A DNA stretch of 30,652 nt. Source: a virus. Its lineage: Duplodnaviria; Heunggongvirae; Uroviricota; Caudoviricetes. The DNA is taken from positions 1 to 30,652 of the IMG/VR virus record IMGVR_UViG_3300045988_047713; one strand, given 5' to 3'. The position numbers and the translations under genes were made by a program. Below the pieces are notes generated by a model. It did not search any database. It saw nothing but the letters and a program-made list of their open reading frames with translations, and was not told the origin of the DNA. Of this stretch, positions 4,211-10,348 are shown piece by piece. Position 1 is the stretch's first letter. Each line of letters starts with the position of its first letter.

Positions 4211-6565
4211 ATGAAAGGGTTACTGAACCGTAAACAGTGGGTCATGTGGCGACTTGAGACAGTCGCCGATCGTCCAAAACCAACGAAAGTACCATACAGC
4301 CCGGTACACGGTTATAAAGCCAGTACCACTAACCCTAACGACTGGTCTGACTATCACACCGCGTTGGGTATGGCGCAAATGTACGGTATGTCTGGTGTTG
4401 GTTTCGTATTCACAGAAAACGACCCTTATTTCTTTATCGATGTTGATAACTGTCTGGTAGATCAGGCGACAGCTACGTGGTCACCTCTGGCGCATGAATT
4501 CGTAAACCGTTTCCCAAATGCTTACACTGAAGTAAGTCAGTCAGGAACAGGTTTACATATCATCTGTGCTTATACCAGCATACCGGAAGGTTTTAACAGT
4601 CTGAACGACCAGAAAACCGGGCTGGAAATGTACTGGCGTGATCGTTTCGTCGCGATGACGCTCACGGGTAATGGTGATGTTGATATTGATTATACCCAGG
4701 GTATTCATGATTCTATTGCCCGGTATGGTCGCATCCGTTCAGACCGTTCCGCACGCTGGACAACAGCACCCTGTGATGACTGGTCAGGCCCGGCAGACGA
4801 TGATGAACTGATTAAAATGGCGTTAAATTCGTCCAGTGCTGCTTCAGTATTTGGTAATAAAGCATCATTTGCGGATCTGTGGAATGCAAACGTTGAACGC
4901 CTGTCTGTGTCATATCCCAGCGACCAGGGAAAAGACTACAATGCATCTGCCGCTGATGCTGCCTTGTGCTCACACCTTGCGTTCTGGACCGGAAAAGATT
5001 GCGAACGTATTGAACGATTGTTTAACCGTTCCGGGCTGGTTCGTGGTAAATGGACAGATCGTCAGGATTACCGTGAAAACACAATTCTGGGCGCTGTGGA
5101 ACGTTGTGATACGGTTTATCGTAGTCAACCGACGCTGACACCAGAACTGATGAAAGCAGTCACACCAGCGCCTACCATCGTTCCTAATGGTGGAACACCT
5201 GCGTATATGAGTGTGAAACCCGGTGAAGGTGCATATGGTTCAAACCACACGGTTAACGCATCCACGTTCGTTAATAACTATTATCCGAACAACACATTAA
5301 TTTTCGTCCAGCAACAGCCGTACCGGTTTAATGGTCGTGTATGGGAACGTGTGAGTGAAGATGAACTGAAACATCAGATATCTATGGCAATGCTCGCCAG
5401 CGAACCAAAAGCTGACGTGATTAATGGTACGTACAAGGTATTGTCGTATTTATTCACACGGGCTGATCGTGAGCTTGGAACATGGCCCGGTGTTGATGTA
5501 TCACACTATATTGTTTGTCAGAACGGGATACTGGATGTACATACGGGTAAATGTGATGCACATAACCCGGATTTCTTTACGACCAGTATTTTACCATATA
5601 GCTATGATCCGTTTGCCCGTGCGCCAGCATTTGAACAGTTTCTTAATACAACTCTGGAAGGTGATCAGGAACGTATTGCACTGTTGCAAGAATGGCTTGG
5701 TTACATGCTTGTCAACTCGTATGACTATCAGAAAGCGATGCTGTTGATTGGTGCGCCACGTTCCGGTAAAGGTACGATCGGTCGTATTATTCAGGCACTG
5801 GTAGGTGACGAAGCATATGCAGGGATCACACTGGAGGGTTTAGCTAGTGATGCGGTACTTGAAACTGTGCTGGATAAATCTGTGCTGTTTATTGGTGATG
5901 CTCACAGTGTGTCCGGGCCTGATCGCAACCGAATTCTGGACCGTTTCAAATCTATTACAGGTTGTGATGCGATTCCGGTTAATCGTAAGTATAAAGGTGC
6001 ATGGAACGGTCGTTTACCGGGACGTATGACACTGGCTGCTAACAACATACCTGCATTTGCTGATGATTCAGGTGCAATGGCTAACCGTTTGCTGATCCTA
6101 CCATTCAACATTTCGTTCCTGGGTCGTGAAGATACCACTCTGGAAGCACGACTGATGAAAGAACTACCGGGGATCTGTAACTGGGCGATTGAAGGTTTGC
6201 AACGGTTACGTGCAAACGGACGGTTTACTGAACCAAAAGCAAGTCTGGAAGAACGTCAGGAAATTATGGATCAACAATCACCACTTAGAAGTTTTATCAG
6301 AGATTGTTGCGAATTGGTATCTGATGGTGAGGTGCACACTGAAGAACTATATGGTCGTTATCGTCTCTGGAAAACACAGGAAGGTGGTCCAGCAATGACT
6401 AAAACTGCATTTAGTCGGGCGTTTAAATCCACCCTTCGTGGTAAAGTGAAAAAAGACGTTGTTAATATAAATAACGTTCGACTAAACGGTTTCAGGGGTA
6501 TTCGTCTTCTCCCTTTTCAGTCAACAGCTAATGTAGTGCCTTTCCCACCTGCGAGTAACGGTTAG
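4211..6565 (+). CDS. DNA primase-helicase: PrimPol-type N-terminal domain fused to D5_N / P4-family SF3 helicase
   Basis: 784 aa; VHGYKASTTNPNDW...GVGFVF...FIDVDNC (bifunctional primase-polymerase motifs); Walker A LLIGAPRSGKGT; Walker B-like VLFIGDAHS. Confidence 0.8.
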   Translation: MKGLLNRKQWVMWRLETVADRPKPTKVPYSPVHGYKASTTNPNDWSDYHTALGMAQMYGMSGVGFVFTENDPYFFIDVDNCLVDQATATWSPLAHEFVNRFPNAYTEVSQSGTGLHIICAYTSIPEGFNSLNDQKTGLEMYWRDRFVAMTLTGNGDVDIDYTQGIHDSIARYGRIRSDRSARWTTAPCDDWSGPADDDELIKMALNSSSAASVFGNKASFADLWNANVERLSVSYPSDQGKDYNASAADAALCSHLAFWTGKDCERIERLFNRSGLVRGKWTDRQDYRENTILGAVERCDTVYRSQPTLTPELMKAVTPAPTIVPNGGTPAYMSVKPGEGAYGSNHTVNASTFVNNYYPNNTLIFVQQQPYRFNGRVWERVSEDELKHQISMAMLASEPKADVINGTYKVLSYLFTRADRELGTWPGVDVSHYIVCQNGILDVHTGKCDAHNPDFFTTSILPYSYDPFARAPAFEQFLNTTLEGDQERIALLQEWLGYMLVNSYDYQKAMLLIGAPRSGKGTIGRIIQALVGDEAYAGITLEGLASDAVLETVLDKSVLFIGDAHSVSGPDRNRILDRFKSITGCDAIPVNRKYKGAWNGRLPGRMTLAANNIPAFADDSGAMANRLLILPFNISFLGREDTTLEARLMKELPGICNWAIEGLQRLRANGRFTEPKASLEERQEIMDQQSPLRSFIRDCCELVSDGEVHTEELYGRYRLWKTQEGGPAMTKTAFSRAFKSTLRGKVKKDVVNINNVRLNGFRGIRLLPFQSTANVVPFPPASNG

Positions 6566-6581
6566 TCATTGCACAAGGATG

Positions 6582-6624
6582 TGTAAAATAATTCTTGACG
6601 AATTACAGATGTGTGCGCTATAGT
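6582..6624 (+). promoter_or_regulatory. conserved sigma70-type promoter, copy 3 (plus strand)
   Basis: UP element GTGTAAAATAATTC, -35 TTGACG (6595-6600), 18-bp spacer, -10 TATAGT (6619-6624); drives the operon 6656-8887. Confidence 0.6.
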
Positions 6625-6655
6625 CTGTACATCAAGTGAACAAGGAGTGATTGTT

Positions 6656-6853
6656 ATGAAAAACATATTTGACCGTTTAATTACTGTTATCGTATTTCTT
6701 GTGTCCGTAACGCTCGCGTCTTGTATTGTCGGACTAATGACCCGTGGTAATCATGCGGAAACTCCGTGGTGGTTTCTGGCAGGTATTGGGTTATTAGCGG
6801 CTGCTGCATCAATTGGCGCTTGCATGTGGGGAGTGAAAAACGATCATGACTGA
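6656..6853 (+). CDS. small membrane protein (65 aa, two predicted TM helices)
   Basis: AAGGAG RBS 8 nt upstream of ATG 6656; hydrophobic stretches LITVIVFLVSVTLASCIVGL and WWFLAGIGLLAAAASIGA. The track start at 6611 lies inside the promoter -10, so the internal ATG is preferred. Confidence 0.6.
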   Translation: MKNIFDRLITVIVFLVSVTLASCIVGLMTRGNHAETPWWFLAGIGLLAAAASIGACMWGVKNDHD

Positions 6854-7061
6854 GTTCGGTGCTGTAATCAAAAAAGAAGACCGTTATGCACATATTGATA
6901 CCCGAATTACCTGGGTTGATATCAGTGAAGCTACCCTGTTCAGTTCAACTTACATGGCTGGAGTTGCACTTAAAGCACTTCACGATCAGGGTTTCAATTG
7001 CAGAAAAATAACAATTGCGCCTGTTAAAATCACGCGGATCGTCGAGGAGACAGAAGGATGA
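6846..7061 (+). CDS. hypothetical protein (71 aa)
   Basis: ORF overlapping the upstream stop; same operon. Confidence 0.5.
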   Translation: MTEFGAVIKKEDRYAHIDTRITWVDISEATLFSSTYMAGVALKALHDQGFNCRKITIAPVKITRIVEETEG

Positions 7062-7762
7062 AAATTGTCTGGTCATTATTCGACGGTTCAGGGATTATGG
7101 GCTTACCGTGGGCTGAGGCTGGTTATCATGTTTATTGTTTTAATGCTGATGGTGCAGATCATGGACCATATGATAAATTTCATGCGAGATACATCCACGA
7201 GGGGCTTCATTATATAAATACATGGATAGATGTTAATTTTATGAATGCTGCGGTTGCGGGTATTTATGGGAAGCCGGATATTATATTTGCATTCCCCCCA
7301 TGTACAGACATGGCTGTAAGTGGTGCATCAGCGTTTGAATCTAAAAGGAAAAAAGATCCGTTATTTCAAGAAAAAGCAGCATTTACGGCAATGATTGCAA
7401 GTAGAATCGCTGACCATTTCAATATTCCGTATTTTGTTGAAAACCCGGTCAGTGTTCTTTCTACTTTTTGGCGAAAACCTGATTATATATTTAACCCGTG
7501 GGAATATGGTGGTTATCTACCTGAAAATGACATTCATCCTTTCTTTCCTGAGCATATTAACCCACGAGATGCTTACCCTAAGAAAACATGTTTATGGACA
7601 GGTAACGGTTTTATTATGCCAGAAAAGAAAATTGTCCCGGTTAAAAAAGGTTATTCAAACCAACATCTTAAATTAGGCGGAAAATCTACTAAAACAAAAG
7701 TCATCAGGTCATTAACCCCGCGTGGTTTTGCTCGCGCTGTATTTGAGGCTAACAAACAATGA
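7058..7762 (+). CDS. minimal DNA (cytosine-5)-methyltransferase-like protein, no recognisable target-recognition domain
   Basis: 234 aa; motif I LFDGSG (aa 7-12), motif IV FPPCTD (PC catalytic dipeptide, aa about 79-84), motif VI FVENP (aa about 126-130), C-terminal LTPRGFARAVF resembling motif IX; spacing of I/IV/VI matches classical C5-MTases but the protein ends at 234 aa. Confidence 0.6.
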   Translation: MKIVWSLFDGSGIMGLPWAEAGYHVYCFNADGADHGPYDKFHARYIHEGLHYINTWIDVNFMNAAVAGIYGKPDIIFAFPPCTDMAVSGASAFESKRKKDPLFQEKAAFTAMIASRIADHFNIPYFVENPVSVLSTFWRKPDYIFNPWEYGGYLPENDIHPFFPEHINPRDAYPKKTCLWTGNGFIMPEKKIVPVKKGYSNQHLKLGGKSTKTKVIRSLTPRGFARAVFEANKQ

Positions 7763-8031
7763 TAATCGTCGTCACAGGTGGTCGTGACTTCAACGACAGA
7801 ACAGCAGTGTTTTCAGCATTAGGGTTACTTCACAAACAATTCCCGGTTACCGAACTGATTGAAGGTGGTGCGTCAGGTGTTGATAACCTGTGTAAGCAAT
7901 GGGCGCAATTACACGGTATTCCTGTGCGTAGTTGCCCGGCAGCGTGGGACGATCTGACTGTACCTGGTGCGGTTGTAAAACAGGGTAAGCACGGGACATT
8001 GACCATTTATCACGGGCTGAACCTGTGGTGA
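7759..8031 (+). CDS. SLOG-superfamily (DUF2493/DprA-LOG-like) protein, apparently short or truncated
   Basis: 90 aa; MIIVVTGGRDFND...LIEGGASGVDNLCKQWAQLHGIPV matches the DUF2493 N-terminal Rossmann core; ATGA overlap with the MTase-like gene. Confidence 0.55.
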   Translation: MIIVVTGGRDFNDRTAVFSALGLLHKQFPVTELIEGGASGVDNLCKQWAQLHGIPVRSCPAAWDDLTVPGAVVKQGKHGTLTIYHGLNLW

Positions 8032-8279
8032 AAACTATAAAACTGTGTGATCTGCTGGATAACACATCTTCAATTGTCCGACACGATCCGAAGTTTGCTG
8101 TAACTTACCTGGCTGAAAAACAACTCATGCTTGCTCACCTGTCAGACGCCAGTAATCAGGAATTATACGCGCTTGTTGAGCGTGAATTGTTTAAAGCCAA
8201 ATACAAACTAACGAACGTCCAGTTGACAGCGTTTGACAAACACTACGACGCACTGATTAAAGCGATGGGGGAGTTGTGA
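8025..8279 (+). CDS. hypothetical protein (84 aa), GTG start overlapping the upstream stop
   Basis: ORF track frame; GTGGTGA start/stop overlap; no recognisable motifs. Confidence 0.4.
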   Translation: MVKTIKLCDLLDNTSSIVRHDPKFAVTYLAEKQLMLAHLSDASNQELYALVERELFKAKYKLTNVQLTAFDKHYDALIKAMGEL

Positions 8280-8281
8280 TT

Positions 8282-8536
8282 ATGAATAAAGCGTCGCCTG
8301 TAGAAATACGCAAGTGTCTTGAAATGGCAAACAGTCTTGCACATGCCGGGATTAGATTTGTCCCTGTACCGGTAACCAGTGATGATGAATTTAATTCGCT
8401 GGTTTCTCATTCTTACGGGATACTGGACAAAATAGCAGACGATTGTGATACGACTAACCGCCAGTTCGAAAGCCTCAGCAACCACAAACATCACTTCATC
8501 AACGGCACTTGCGTAGAGTGCCTGAAAAGTGAATAA
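8282..8536 (+). CDS. hypothetical protein with C-terminal CxxC (GTCVEC)
   Basis: ATG at 8282, 3 nt after the upstream stop; the track start at 8276 is a GTG two codons upstream. Confidence 0.5.
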   Translation: MNKASPVEIRKCLEMANSLAHAGIRFVPVPVTSDDEFNSLVSHSYGILDKIADDCDTTNRQFESLSNHKHHFINGTCVECLKSE

Positions 8537-8599
8537 CTACCTGTTCATACTATTCATCAGTGCGCTCTATGTGGCGCACGTTTTCTATGAGGTGTACCG

Positions 8600-8887
8600 A
8601 TGACCATAAGACGTGTTGTGTGTGCGGCAAATAAATATGAACTTAACGATGGTTCAACTAAGATTTTCACTGGTATCCGACACTATTGTCCCGTTATGCG
8701 TCAGAATATAGAGTTCTGGAAATTATCCATCAAACGTTCTACAGAAGTACAAGGCTTTGTAGATCAGTATGGTGTTTTCATGGACCGTTTTGAAGCACTT
8801 CAGGTTGCAAAAGATGCCGGGCAACTGAATATCGCCAGACCAAAAACATCACCTGAAGATCGGTTATTTAGCGAGGACTTATACTAA
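8600..8887 (+). CDS. hypothetical protein (95 aa)
   Basis: GAGGTG RBS 7 nt upstream of the ATG; last gene before a strong terminator. Confidence 0.55.
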   Translation: MTIRRVVCAANKYELNDGSTKIFTGIRHYCPVMRQNIEFWKLSIKRSTEVQGFVDQYGVFMDRFEALQVAKDAGQLNIARPKTSPEDRLFSEDLY

Positions 8888-8893
8888 CAAAAA

Positions 8894-8922
8894 AGCGGGG
8901 CTAACTACCCCGCTATCTTTAT
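8894..8922. terminator. bidirectional rho-independent terminator
   Basis: Hairpin AGCGGGG-CTAACTA-CCCCGCT (8894-8914), A-run upstream and T-rich run downstream, so it works on both strands; lies between convergent genes. Confidence 0.75.
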
Positions 8923-9737
8923 TGACCCATCATATCTTTATACATCATCAAAACAACATCATCCGGCATATTGTCTACATCACAATGTGGGTTATGCGAT
9001 AACGCATACAGTCTGATTTTCTCCTTCAAATCGCTGACATCGACTACAGGTGGTTCCACTCGTGCTACAGGTGGTTCCACTCGTGCTACAGGTGGTTCCA
9101 CTCGTGCTACAGGTGGTTCCACTCGTGCTACAGGTGGTTCCACTCGTGCTACAGGTGGTTCCACTCGTGCTACAGGTGGTTCACAAACCATCACGTTAAA
9201 CGGTGTACCGGTGCCTTCGTATTTTTCAAGCAAATCGACCATTACGTTTACACATTCCGGGATCCAACCCCGGCGCAAACCATTCTGAATCCAACTGTCA
9301 GTAATTGTGTGTTCGTTTAAATTTCTGCGTAACACGTATCTGGTACATTCAAAATTACCGCACATCGCCTCAAACCGTGTCCACACGTCGTGACCGTGAA
9401 CAGCTTCCAGGATCTGTGAATCAACATATCTGACACGTTGCCAGTAGTTATTAGCAAAACGCCTGTGTGGTAATTTCTGACGCAGTTCGGTAACCGGTAT
9501 TGTGCGTTTAAGAACAATGTTTTCGTCAGAATGTTGTACTGACAAGGGTGACAGTGTGAAGTCAGTAATCTCTTCAAGAATAATACTGATCGTTTCAATT
9601 TTAGGATGAAATCTACCGCTCAACCATTGGTTGTAACGACCAACAGTTACCTTAACACCTCGACGATTAAGGTATTCAACAGCATTTTGCACCCCGCCTT
9701 TTAAATCTATCAATTCGTCTAAAAGGTTCTTTTTCAT
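8919..9737 (-). CDS. hypothetical protein with N-terminal HTH-like segment and 7 tandem EPPVARV heptads
   Basis: 272 aa from ATG 9737 (AAGGTG RBS 7 nt upstream; the track start at 9773 is 12 codons further); internal perfect 21-bp nucleotide repeats; sits directly beside the operator array. Confidence 0.6.
   Translation of the reverse strand: MKKNLLDELIDLKGGVQNAVEYLNRRGVKVTVGRYNQWLSGRFHPKIETISIILEEITDFTLSPLSVQHSDENIVLKRTIPVTELRQKLPHRRFANNYWQRVRYVDSQILEAVHGHDVWTRFEAMCGNFECTRYVLRRNLNEHTITDSWIQNGLRRGWIPECVNVMVDLLEKYEGTGTPFNVMVCEPPVARVEPPVARVEPPVARVEPPVARVEPPVARVEPPVARVEPPVVDVSDLKEKIRLYALSHNPHCDVDNMPDDVVLMMYKDMMGQ
9044..9190. repeat. perfect tandem repeat, 21-bp unit CTACAGGTGGTTCCACTCGTG, about 6.7 copies, in-frame within a CDS
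   Basis: Read directly: identical units from 9044 to about 9184; encodes the EPPVARV heptads on the minus strand. Confidence 0.9.
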
Positions 9738-9780
9738 TATCACACCTTCTTTATTTAACCACGGATAAATCATAACTCGC

Positions 9781-9955
9781 GTTAGCAGCTAGTGCAAGAT
9801 GTGCTTTATATGTTAGTGCACTTACACCTAATACATATTGTGCTTTAACGGTTAGTGCAAGATGCACGTTGTGCATTAGCTGTTAGTGCACGTTGTGTAT
9901 CTATGTTGGTACAGTTAGTGCACGTTGTGTATTATATAGTGCACGTTATGCATTA
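9781..9955. promoter_or_regulatory. array of 5-7 palindromic operator/iteron-like sites (core TAGTGCACGTTGTGCATTA)
   Basis: Copies near 9790, 9812, 9861, 9885, 9917, 9938; each contains an inverted repeat TGCAC-N3-GTGCA; spacing about 25-35 bp. Confidence 0.6.
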
Positions 9956-9967
9956 AAGTTATACTTA

Positions 9968-10085
9968 ACATAGATTGCATCATGTTTATTTTTTAACCAA
10001 CCTTTCTCTATCTTATTCTTTTTATTACCTTTTTATAGATAACATAGAAAACATAGATAAATAGAAGAAGTAGTATAGAAAGATA
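9968..10085. repeat. AT-rich intergenic element, copy A of a ~105-110-bp duplicated sequence
   Basis: CATGTTTATTTTTTAACCAACCTTTCTCTATCTTATTCTTTTTATTACCTTTTTATAGA...ACATAGATAAATAGAAG is about 90 percent identical to 29201-29310. Confidence 0.8.
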
Positions 10086-10225
10086 GAGATAGTACATATA
10101 GTGTATTAGCTGTAAATAGAGCTAAAATAAAAGTCTGGGAGATACCTATTGTAATCTATGTTTTTATGCAAGTCTTTGAAATCATTGTGATTATTGGCTA
10201 CGTATTTATGTATGTGGTCGAAAAT

Positions 10226-10243
10226 TAGTGCATGTTGTGCATT
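10226..10243. promoter_or_regulatory. isolated operator copy (TTAGTGCATGTTGTGCATTA)
   Basis: Same palindromic core as the 9781-9955 array, about 100 bp upstream of TerS. Confidence 0.45.
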
Positions 10244-10348
10244 AACTGTAAACTTAATACTAACATTGTATTAGCTGTAAAACAGGGCGTGTAGACAACC
10301 CGTGGGTATCTGTGGGAAACTAATTTAAAATTTATGGGAGACAAATTT

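Follow-up and report, generated by a model that had tools for sequence, protein, structure and literature searches.

A short Dcm-like methyltransferase and a probable deletion scar in an accessory operon of a Sashavirus/9NA-like siphophage

Introduction

Does a short cytosine-5 methyltransferase (C5-MTase)-like gene that adjoins a gene for a SLOG-like protein represent a new DNA modification module? The question is raised by positions 6582-8922 of a 30,652-nt stretch of DNA (the window), which belongs to a Sashavirus/9NA-like siphophage. A preliminary description had read this region as a compact DNA or nucleotide modification or counter-defence module. Our analysis indicates that it is, in all probability, an ordinary accessory operon and not a new modification module, and that the 234-aa methyltransferase-like protein is very likely a short phage C5-MTase of PHROG 757 and the sole recognisable intact enzyme of the operon. 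The main value of the work is this correction, in which an apparent new module is resolved into a common, annotated methyltransferase family and what is probably a deletion scar.

Results

An accessory operon downstream of the primase gene

The region is a variable accessory (early/replication-associated) unit downstream of the primase-helicase gene, with seven small genes under one promoter that are translationally coupled through ATGA/GTGA overlaps at the gene borders. All seven plus-strand ORFs of the preliminary description were found where it had placed them, as were its promoter and terminator. The sigma-70-like promoter lies downstream of the primase gene at 6595..6624 on the + strand (TTGACG, 18 nt, TATAGT; 10 of 12 matches), and a hairpin at 8894..8914 forms a bidirectional intrinsic terminator separating convergent genes, at the same place as an annotated terminator in phage Sasha. 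However, the promoter had been described as the third copy of a repeated element, and we found its 30-nt sequence once only in the window, with no further copy when up to three mismatches were allowed. The segment 6501-6661 is 99.4% identical to its counterparts in Sasha, PDP46 and 536P12. A second, terminator-like hairpin followed by a short T-run lies within the operon, upstream of the last gene (8560..8579, +). A megablast search of 5,426 complete E. coli genomes returned no match, and we are therefore not dealing with a resident prophage gene.

The first gene (6656..6853, +) encodes a 65-aa putative lipoprotein or small membrane protein, matching phrog_22517 ‘lipoprotein’ (E 2.6e-47) and containing the lipobox LASC; its Sasha counterpart, gp72, is annotated with a lipobox and two TMDs. 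The small membrane protein reported earlier is thus present, but the GTG start at 6611, which gives 80 aa, is probably too long: the phrog_22517 match begins at residue 16 of the 80-aa ORF, and a gene caller likewise predicted 65 aa for this product on contig L009. Translation most likely starts at the ATG at 6656, as judged from these matches. The next gene (6846..7061, +) encodes a 71-aa protein of phrog_26050, which is kept upstream of the methyltransferase gene in Sasha and 9NA, and is also found in 536P12, a phage without the methyltransferase.

Three small ORFs at the end of the operon had been listed as unknowns. The ORF at 8025-8279 corresponds to residues 106-189 of an HD_4-type hydrolase and is discussed below. 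The second (8282..8536, +) encodes an 84-aa DUF1382 protein (Pfam PF07131, E 5.9e-23; phrog_292), in agreement with the gene call on contig L009; an alternative GTG start at 8276 would give 86 aa. The third (8600..8887, +) encodes a 95-aa protein of phrog_839, which is T4_Y16D-like by precomputed Pfam annotation.

The 234-aa protein belongs to a widespread family of short methyltransferases

At 7058..7762 (+) lies the gene for the 234-aa protein, a short orphan DNA cytosine-5 methyltransferase that falls into PHROG 757, the ‘Dcm-like’ family of phages. The protein matched phrog_757 ‘DNA methyltransferase’ over its full length (residues 1-233, E 9.6e-90), and homologues were present in 1519 of 50,697 phage records. 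The family comprises 5683 clusters at 90% identity, and a search with the family profile returned 2067 clusters at 50% identity, the best 150 of which were almost all 200-280 aa long and matched end to end. Among the matches listed, homologues were mostly of 225-252 aa, and a precomputed PF00145 match accompanied 3 of 120 listed. A fusion with a D12 Dam-type DNA methyltransferase occurs in one homologue, and genes of the family usually lie next to those for helicases, primases or further DNA methyltransferases; both features suggest a DNA-directed role. The novelty proposed for the protein falls away, since the family is already known and hundreds of phage genomes carry it under the annotation Dcm or C5 methylase. 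In addition, LC-MS evidence of 5-methylcytosine (5mC) formation on DNA has been published for an enzyme closely related to a homologue of 56% identity. The preliminary description had itself considered that the protein might turn out to be a complete, ordinary short C5-MTase with a defined target. This is largely what emerged, with shortness as the family norm, while a defined target did not emerge.

We then considered whether the catalytic motifs reported earlier are real. Motifs I (F8-D-G-S-G12, FxGxG), IV (P80-P81-C82) and VI (ENV in the classical enzymes, E128-N129-P130 here) are present, and C82 and E128-N129-P130 are invariant in 26 family members that are merely 34-56% identical to the window protein, while G12, P80, R139 and K175 are conserved in at least 90% of this set. 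Such conservation across divergent members shows that the LFDGSG, PPCTD and FVENP segments are not chance matches. The AlphaFold model (pLDDT 91) adopts a C5-MTase fold closest to DNMT3A/B. The catalytic core is complete, with the FxGxG SAM loop, the PPC nucleophile C82, E128 of ENP, the conserved R139 and a fold-closing C-terminal helix. The recognition part, as in DNMT3 enzymes, is reduced to about 60-70 Lys/Arg-rich residues (approximately 150-220) between the core and the C-terminal helix (222-232), and is strongly conserved in sequence (YPKKTCLWTGNGF, LGGKSxKTKxIRSLTPRGF). A C5-MTase-like protein with a very reduced recognition domain, as first described, is therefore upheld.

Sequence searches gave a fainter picture of the relation to classical enzymes. 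The protein scored 16.0 bits against Pfam PF00145, below the cut-off of 22, with a match confined to residues 5-105 (motifs I-IV). HMMER searches of PDB sequences, with either the single protein or the family profile, gave no meaningful match, NCBIfam gave no match for the methyltransferase, and PADLOC returned only weak matches to Type II methyltransferases (E 0.005-0.013). When the family alignment was compared with E. coli K-12 Dcm by hhalign, 24 columns around motif IV were aligned, with a probability of 0.8%; ‘Dcm-like’ is therefore a functional label and does not denote close homology. Taken together, the sub-threshold PF00145 score, the absence of a PDB match and the alignment restricted to motif IV mean that it is structure prediction and motifs that connect the protein with classical C5-MTases.

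A tested relative reportedly methylates DNA

The orthologue in Sasha is gp74, annotated as a C-5 cytosine DNA methylase, which is 95.7% identical and occupies the same place after the lipoprotein and 71-aa genes. A divergent allele is found at the same locus in 9NA (gp78) and PDP46 (PDP46_0085), 51-53% identical to the window protein, with near-identity limited to the first ~30 and last ~20 residues; it carries PDC instead of PPC and lacks the WRKPD segment. Outside this group, bas06_0055 of phage KarlJaspers (Bas06), a 711-bp gene encoding 236 aa, shares 56% identity with the window protein along its whole length (E 3e-92), and C82, E128, K175 and K176 of the window protein align to the same positions in it.

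This last relative matters in view of experiments on phage K42, whose genome is 95.4% identical to that of Bas06 and whose orthologous dcm gene is likewise 711 bp (bioRxiv 10.1101/2023.08.16.553469, later published as Wang et al., Cell Rep 2024;43:114857). K42 Dcm is reported to place 5mC on the msDNA of retron Ec86, as detected by LC-MS, and to trigger the defence of this retron (Ec86/Eco1), an effect lost in the C82A/E128A/K175A/K176A mutant. Escaper phages with dcm deleted were viable, so that dcm is dispensable for growth, and the phage Dcm was said to be toxic when expressed. CCWGG specificity was assumed from E. coli Dcm, supported by msDNA mutants only and with no target mapping; mutation of CCTGG in the msDNA stem abolished defence. 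In dcm+ MG1655 controls the msDNA carried low 5mC, compared with high 5mC in the presence of phage Dcm (bioRxiv 10.1101/2023.08.16.553469). The phage enzyme therefore acts on the msDNA stem-loop in a way that the host Dcm does not.

These data bear on an alternative that we consider rather unlikely, namely that the window protein is a real DNA C5-MTase but one of low specificity or specific for structure (preferring hairpins or ssDNA, or acting as a DNMT3-like dimer), and not an equivalent of the CCWGG-specific Dcm. The short stretch available for recognition is consistent with such an enzyme, as is the resemblance to DNMT3A/B, which have the smallest target recognition domains (TRDs) among the solved C5-MTases matched. 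DNMT3A/B contact DNA through the dimer interface. However, DNMT3 enzymes are specific for CpG although their TRDs are small, and the strong conservation of the recognition segment is as expected of a defined DNA contact surface. The lack of detectable sequence kinship to E. coli Dcm beyond motif IV, the toxicity seen in the K42 study and the activity of K42 Dcm on the msDNA stem-loop, which the host Dcm does not match, all lean towards low specificity, but the loss of defence on mutation of CCTGG fits dependence on a site. It would be similarly surprising if the short family as a whole were DNMT3-like, dimeric and of low specificity or hairpin/ssDNA-preferring instead of a CCWGG Dcm, with Sasha-type and 9NA-type alleles perhaps differing in specificity. 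No direct study of the specificity of the short family was found in the literature reached, and a search for work on 9NA and cytosine methyltransferase found nothing. Approximately 3% of sequenced phages carry this family, and its recognition sequence and the way in which so small a recognition domain reads DNA are one point of residual interest.

The SLOG-like gene and its downstream neighbour are probably remnants of a deletion

The ORF that follows the methyltransferase gene (7759..8031, +) encodes 90 aa and was described earlier as a SLOG-like protein. The assignment holds for its N-terminal part, which matched Pfam YAcAr/SLOG (PF10686) over residues 1-64 with 69.7 bits (cut-off 28.2). The ORF is, however, a truncated chimera, in which codons 1-79 derive from a 131-aa SLOG (YAcAr/DUF2493) gene, after which 11 codons are read out of frame up to a stop. 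Over these 79 residues Sasha gp75 and PDP46_0086, both of 131 aa, are 88-89% identical to it, and the alignment showed that the C-terminal ~50 residues, including PGGRGT, are gone; similarity at the DNA level stops at 7995. Near-full-length proteins are the rule, with 642 of 651 phage SLOG homologues covering at least 80% of the 131-aa query and full-length members having about 125-131 aa, which contradicts a history in which the 90-aa ORF came first and the 131-aa genes arose by fusion. The product of a 128-aa gene downstream of dcm in KarlJaspers/swan01 was also considered as a SLOG protein and was rejected, having no Pfam match and only a spurious 26% alignment.

The sequence immediately downstream (7996..8279, +) is a 3' remnant: of an HD_4 (RelA/SpoT-hydrolase-type) gene only the last third is left, and the HD catalytic part is missing. 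The 84-aa ORF within it (8025-8279) shares 98% identity with the C-terminal part (residues 106-189) of PDP46_0095, a protein of 189 aa. The full-length hydrolase matches Pfam HD_4 over residues 5-127 (E 2.9e-15) and is intact in PDP46_0095 and in a 189-aa ORF of 536P12, whereas the window lacks the N-terminal 105 residues carrying the HD motifs. Between the two remnants, at 7987..7995, lies a 9-bp microhomology (AAGCACGGG) common to the SLOG and HD-hydrolase genes of relatives, and at this junction the window is shorter than 536P12 by 1894 bp and than PDP46 by 2878 bp, as for a deletion of 1.9-2.9 kb. Downstream of the methyltransferase gene Sasha carries genes for an intact 131-aa SLOG protein, an HNH endonuclease and a ParB-like protein, which are lost in the window. 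Five metagenome contigs encode this 90-aa chimera too, with the three places shown representing three samples.

Comparison with these relatives suggests, with good confidence, that the 90-aa ORF and the ORF after it are two stumps of a microhomology-mediated deletion and not enzyme partners. The deletion would have removed the 3' third of the SLOG gene and the 5' part of the HD hydrolase gene, which encodes its catalytic portion, together with the accessory genes that lie between the two, among them a ParB-like gene in relatives. More generally, the locus downstream of the primase gene shows gain, swap and loss of accessory genes via short microhomologies.

We can now return to the idea of a functional pair, in which the SLOG protein and the short methyltransferase would together make up an undescribed compact module for DNA/nucleotide modification or counter-defence, and the substrate would be a SLOG-bound nucleotide or otherwise non-duplex. 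The two ORFs do adjoin, coupled by an ATGA overlap at 7759-7762, the adjacency recurs in Sasha and PDP46, and SLOG domains are nucleotide-binding according to the Pfam annotation of the YAcAr family. However, the window SLOG ORF ends after residue 79, without the PGGRGT region, and each gene is found without the other. Phage 536P12 has the SLOG gene and lacks the methyltransferase, while 9NA, KarlJaspers, slur05, AlexBoehm and PVP-SE1 have the methyltransferase and no SLOG gene in the DNA fetched (50 of 51.5 kb for KarlJaspers). Among the phages compared, the adjacency is limited to Sashavirus. The 651 SLOG-carrying phage records sampled came largely from other groups, such as Ackermannviridae-sized myophages, Seuratvirus, vibriophages and mycobacteriophages. 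The methyltransferase relative for which there are experiments uses DNA as its substrate. The proposed module is already largely refuted, and we regard it as very improbable.

Discussion

The reading that we prefer is that the window methyltransferase is an ordinary short C5-MTase that, on the strength of its intact catalytic residues and its tested relative, quite probably forms 5mC in DNA. The enzyme would flip the target cytosine out, C82 would attack C6 of the flipped base, and the methyl group of SAM would be transferred to C5. Its substrate would be the phage DNA as well as whatever other DNA the infected cell contains; nothing points to a free nucleotide, which had been suggested earlier, and K42 Dcm acts on DNA. 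It is reasonable to assign it a role in DNA modification, probably as a means of counter-defence. Methylation could shield phage DNA from 5mC-sensitive restriction, and the price would be exposure to retron Eco1 and to methylation-dependent restriction. In the BASEL study, resistance to restriction showed no simple relation to the methyltransferase genes of the phages, and the anti-restriction benefit is therefore one that we infer. CCWGG occurs 55 times in the window compared with about 70 expected, neither notable avoidance nor enrichment, and counts of palindromes and CCWGG in the window were uninformative in this respect.

That the methyltransferase-like protein is inert or repurposed here (for example as a DNA-binding protein or decoy), in an operon without a modification function, is scarcely credible, for although the 9NA/PDP46 allele with PDC for PPC and no WRKPD indicates that some alleles may be drifting, the window allele retains all invariant and near-invariant residues, including C82, E128/N129/P130, R139 and K175, and remains nearly identical to Sasha gp74.

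The operon holding the methyltransferase gene is non-essential. A phage that carries the gene is predicted to be sensitive to retron Eco1 (Ec86), and may be sensitive to methylation-dependent restriction as well, a point to consider in the choice of Sashavirus phages for therapy or biocontrol.

How does this operon compare with known systems? In phage DNA hypermodification clusters tailoring enzymes lie beside the base-modifying enzyme, whereas the window unit is without them: Pfam, PHROGs, NCBIfam and PADLOC searches of all ORFs of the unit detected no hydroxymethylase, TET, glycosyl- or aminotransferase or DpdA/Que domain, in agreement with the preliminary description. Unlike classical type II C5-MTases, the methyltransferase has no partner restriction enzyme in the unit, and compared with M.HhaI, M.HaeIII and E. 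coli Dcm (PF00145) it is about 100-240 residues shorter and appears to lack a separate small TRD domain. The catalytic domains of DNMT3A and DNMT3B are closest in fold, yet share just 10-15% sequence identity with it; the DNMT3 catalytic domain has about 280 aa and works with regulatory partners. A close parallel is bas06_0055/K42 Dcm. KarlJaspers is a member of the Drexlerviridae whereas the window is from a Sashavirus, the gene neighbourhoods are unlike, and with 44% of residues differing the target sequence need therefore not match. Both proteins are nevertheless products of dispensable accessory genes of virulent siphophages.

Genomic context and organization of the accessory operon

By megablast, the window belongs with the Sashavirus/9NA-like phages, a group of virulent siphophages that infect Salmonella and E. 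coli; it crosses the ends of the deposited Sasha genome at 10073/10074. The accessory operon (6582-8922, + strand) has the same primase gene in front of it in Sasha, PDP46, 536P12 and 9NA, and was absent from the complete E. coli genomes searched by megablast. The upstream primase-helicase gene (4211-6565) encodes a 784-aa replication protein with NrS-1-type primase-polymerase helix-bundle, D5_N and DUF5906 (D5-like helicase) domains, matching phrog_1829 (E 1.9e-229). Directly after it lies a good match to a sigma-70-type promoter (6595-6624, +; TTGACG, 18 nt, TATAGT), whose 30-nt sequence occurs once in the window when up to 3 mismatches are allowed. Between the unit and a convergent gene for a 284-aa protein lies a bidirectional hairpin terminator (8894-8914), and a second terminator-like hairpin is found inside the unit (8560-8579). 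All seven + strand ORFs named in the preliminary description were present, and ATGA/GTGA overlaps between the genes indicate that they are translationally coupled.

Four of the + strand ORFs encode a 65-aa lipoprotein-like membrane protein (6656-6853; phrog_22517, lipobox LASC), a 71-aa protein (6846-7061; phrog_26050), a DUF1382 protein (8282-8536; Pfam E 5.9e-23) and a 95-aa protein (8600-8887; phrog_839, T4_Y16D in the precomputed annotation). Searches of Pfam, PHROGs, NCBIfam and PADLOC found no modification-related domain in these four. The 70-aa gene gp71, which lies between the promoter and the lipoprotein gene in Sasha, PDP46 and 9NA, is absent from the window. The gap is a clean 208 bp at a shared ATGAAA (window 6656-6661; Sasha, L001, 3581-3788), and therefore the lipoprotein gene sits at the gp71 start-codon position.

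Downstream of the unit, the - strand ORF of the 284-aa protein (8919-9773; phrog_25538) contains seven tandem copies of a 21-bp repeat (9023-9211) encoding PVARVEP units. The Sasha orthologue carries an annotated 282-bp 'direct tandem repeat region', and on metagenome contigs the protein is 237 aa long; the repeat copy number therefore varies between isolates. The intergenic region 9793-10281 holds about 10 imperfect copies of a ~25-nt motif resembling TAGTGCACGTTGTGCATTA, shortly ahead of position 10073/10074, at which the deposited Sasha sequence stops and begins again. These copies could be protein-binding sites, serving for example regulation, replication or packaging.

A short C5-methyltransferase from a very large phage family

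The 234-aa protein (7058-7762) has a complete, conserved C5-methyltransferase core with a minimal recognition segment, and belongs to a very large phage family. Its match to Pfam PF00145 was limited to residues 5-105 and scored 16 bits, short of the threshold of 22, and HMMER found no match among PDB sequences; PHROG 757 ("DNA methyltransferase") covered it end to end (E 9.6e-90). Homologues formed 5683 clusters at 90% identity, the members listed being mostly 225-252 aa long, and 2067 clusters at 50% identity, the best 150 of which were almost all 200-280 aa and matched profile positions ~2-233. Since the homologues are likewise short, a length of 234 aa is typical of the family and does not reflect truncation. 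A homologue occurred in 1519 of 50,697 phage records, and carriers included Drexlerviridae, Dhillonvirus, Vequintavirinae, Seunavirus, Klebsiella siphophages and the ~150 kb phages anhysbys and nepoznato. The usual annotations are "Dcm", "C-5 cytosine-specific DNA methylase" and "DNA methyltransferase". The novelty proposed earlier for the module is not supported.

Among members 34-56% identical to the window protein, C82 and E128-N129-P130 were invariant, and G12, P80, R139 and K175 were at least 90% conserved. The preliminary domain calls were accurate, and this conservation indicates that the C5-methyltransferase motifs they rested on are under selection. Fusions and extensions also occur. 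P0260, a natural 563-aa fusion, carries the N-terminal part of the short profile (positions 3-194) at residues 5-178 and a D12-class N6-adenine (Dam-type) DNA methyltransferase at residues 303-546, and the ~400-aa homologues P0248 and P0252 have a ~175-residue N-terminal extension lacking a Pfam match.

An AlphaFold2 model built with 32 homologues was confident (pLDDT 91.3, pTM 0.89). The top 46 Foldseek matches in the PDB were all DNMT3A/B/C, and BFVD matches comprised the same short family, other short phage methylases and helicase fusions. The predicted fold is that of a complete C5-methyltransferase catalytic core, its recognition segment apparently cut down to ~70 residues (about 150-220). 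In the model, the fold is closed after this segment by a C-terminal helix (222-232).

PDP46 (L002, 4660-5340) and 9NA (L012, 4400-5086) carry at this position a second, divergent allele of the methyltransferase. It is 51-53% identical to the window allele, with the first ~30 and last ~20 residues nearly identical, a pattern that suggests cassette exchange at this locus. PDC replaces the PPC catalytic motif and the WRKPD segment is missing, so the activity or specificity of this allele may differ.

The SLOG ORF is a deletion stump

The preliminary description paired the methyltransferase with a SLOG protein encoded by the 90-aa ORF (7759-8031). Blastn against the relatives resolved this region into two adjoining blocks: 7759-7995 corresponds to the first 237 nt of a 396-nt SLOG gene (Sasha gp75, PDP46_0086), and 7987-8617 to the 3'-terminal portion of PDP46_0095 ("RelA/SpoT family") together with the DUF1382 gene. 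The blocks overlap by 9 bp at 7987-7995 (AAGCACGGG), common to both parental sequences. Compared with 536P12 and PDP46, the window is missing 1894 and 2878 bp, respectively. One microhomology deletion created both truncated genes. Joined out of frame, the ORF encodes 79 SLOG residues and 11 unrelated ones, and lacks the C-terminal ~50 SLOG residues including the PGGRGT stretch; it is thus a stump and not an intact partner gene. Full length is the norm elsewhere: of 651 phage records bearing a SLOG homologue, 642 matched the 131-aa query over 80% or more of its length.

The adjacent ORF (8025-8279) shares 98% identity with residues 106-189 of a 189-aa HD_4 (RelA/SpoT-hydrolase-type) protein, intact in 536P12 (L003, 5724-6293) and PDP46 (L002, 8166-8735), and lacks the HD catalytic half, the Pfam HD_4 match being to residues 5-127 of the intact protein. 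The intact form carries HGDQLR and HDVVED motifs and could act as a small alarmone hydrolase. The exact chimeric 90-aa protein was encoded on five ENA metagenome contigs (the three places shown come from three samples), the longer of which had the window's gene order. The chimera therefore marks a circulating lineage and not a one-off assembly error.

Either gene also occurs without the other, which, with the truncation, argues against a methyltransferase-SLOG module. 536P12 has retained the genes for the lipoprotein, the 71-aa protein and a full SLOG protein, with ~200 bp where the methyltransferase gene would be; in 9NA, a 65-aa gene and an HNH gene come after the methyltransferase, with no SLOG gene in the DNA compared. 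Using tblastn, the Sasha SLOG protein found nothing in 50 of 51.5 kb of KarlJaspers (Bas06), or near the methyltransferase genes of swan01, slur05, AlexBoehm and PVP-SE1. In these five phages the neighbours are helicase, primase or other methyltransferase genes, and the sampled SLOG-bearing phages came largely from other groups. The product of the 128-aa gene that follows dcm in Drexlerviridae was ruled out as a SLOG protein.

Proposed activity and comparison with a tested relative

The window allele would methylate phage and cellular DNA in a SAM-dependent reaction through a covalent mechanism at C82. This could shield phage DNA from 5mC-sensitive restriction, at the probable price of being recognised by retron Eco1 and type IV restriction systems. 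In BASEL, phage methyltransferase genes showed no simple correlation with restriction resistance.

A relative has been studied with retron Ec86 (bioRxiv 10.1101/2023.08.16.553469; later Wang et al., Cell Rep 2024;43:114857). The Dcm of K42, a KarlJaspers relative with 95.4% genome identity, forms 5mC on DNA, is dispensable for growth and triggers retron Eco1 (bioRxiv 10.1101/2023.08.16.553469). All four K42 escapers carried lesions within the 711-bp dcm gene or immediately upstream of it; one had lost 2,262 bp, so the gene is dispensable, and co-expression of Dcm and the retron impaired growth (bioRxiv 10.1101/2023.08.16.553469). By LC-MS, 5mC in msDNA was high when Dcm was present and low for the C82A/E128A/K175A/K176A mutant and the empty vector; the authors had identified these residues by overlaying an AlphaFold model onto DNMT3A (bioRxiv 10.1101/2023.08.16.553469). 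CCWGG specificity was assumed from E. coli Dcm, its sole support being msDNA stem mutants, and dcm+ control cells had low msDNA methylation (bioRxiv 10.1101/2023.08.16.553469). The scientific interest now lies in the family's sequence specificity and in how so small an enzyme reads DNA.

Beyond motif IV, E. coli Dcm has no recognisable homology to this family. KarlJaspers (MZ501090) bas06_0055, a 711-bp "Dcm-like C5 cytosine methyltransferase" gene, encodes a product 56% identical to the window protein over its whole length (E 3e-92), with C82, E128, K175 and K176 aligned position for position. The window protein is therefore a member of a family for which DNA 5mC formation has been published.
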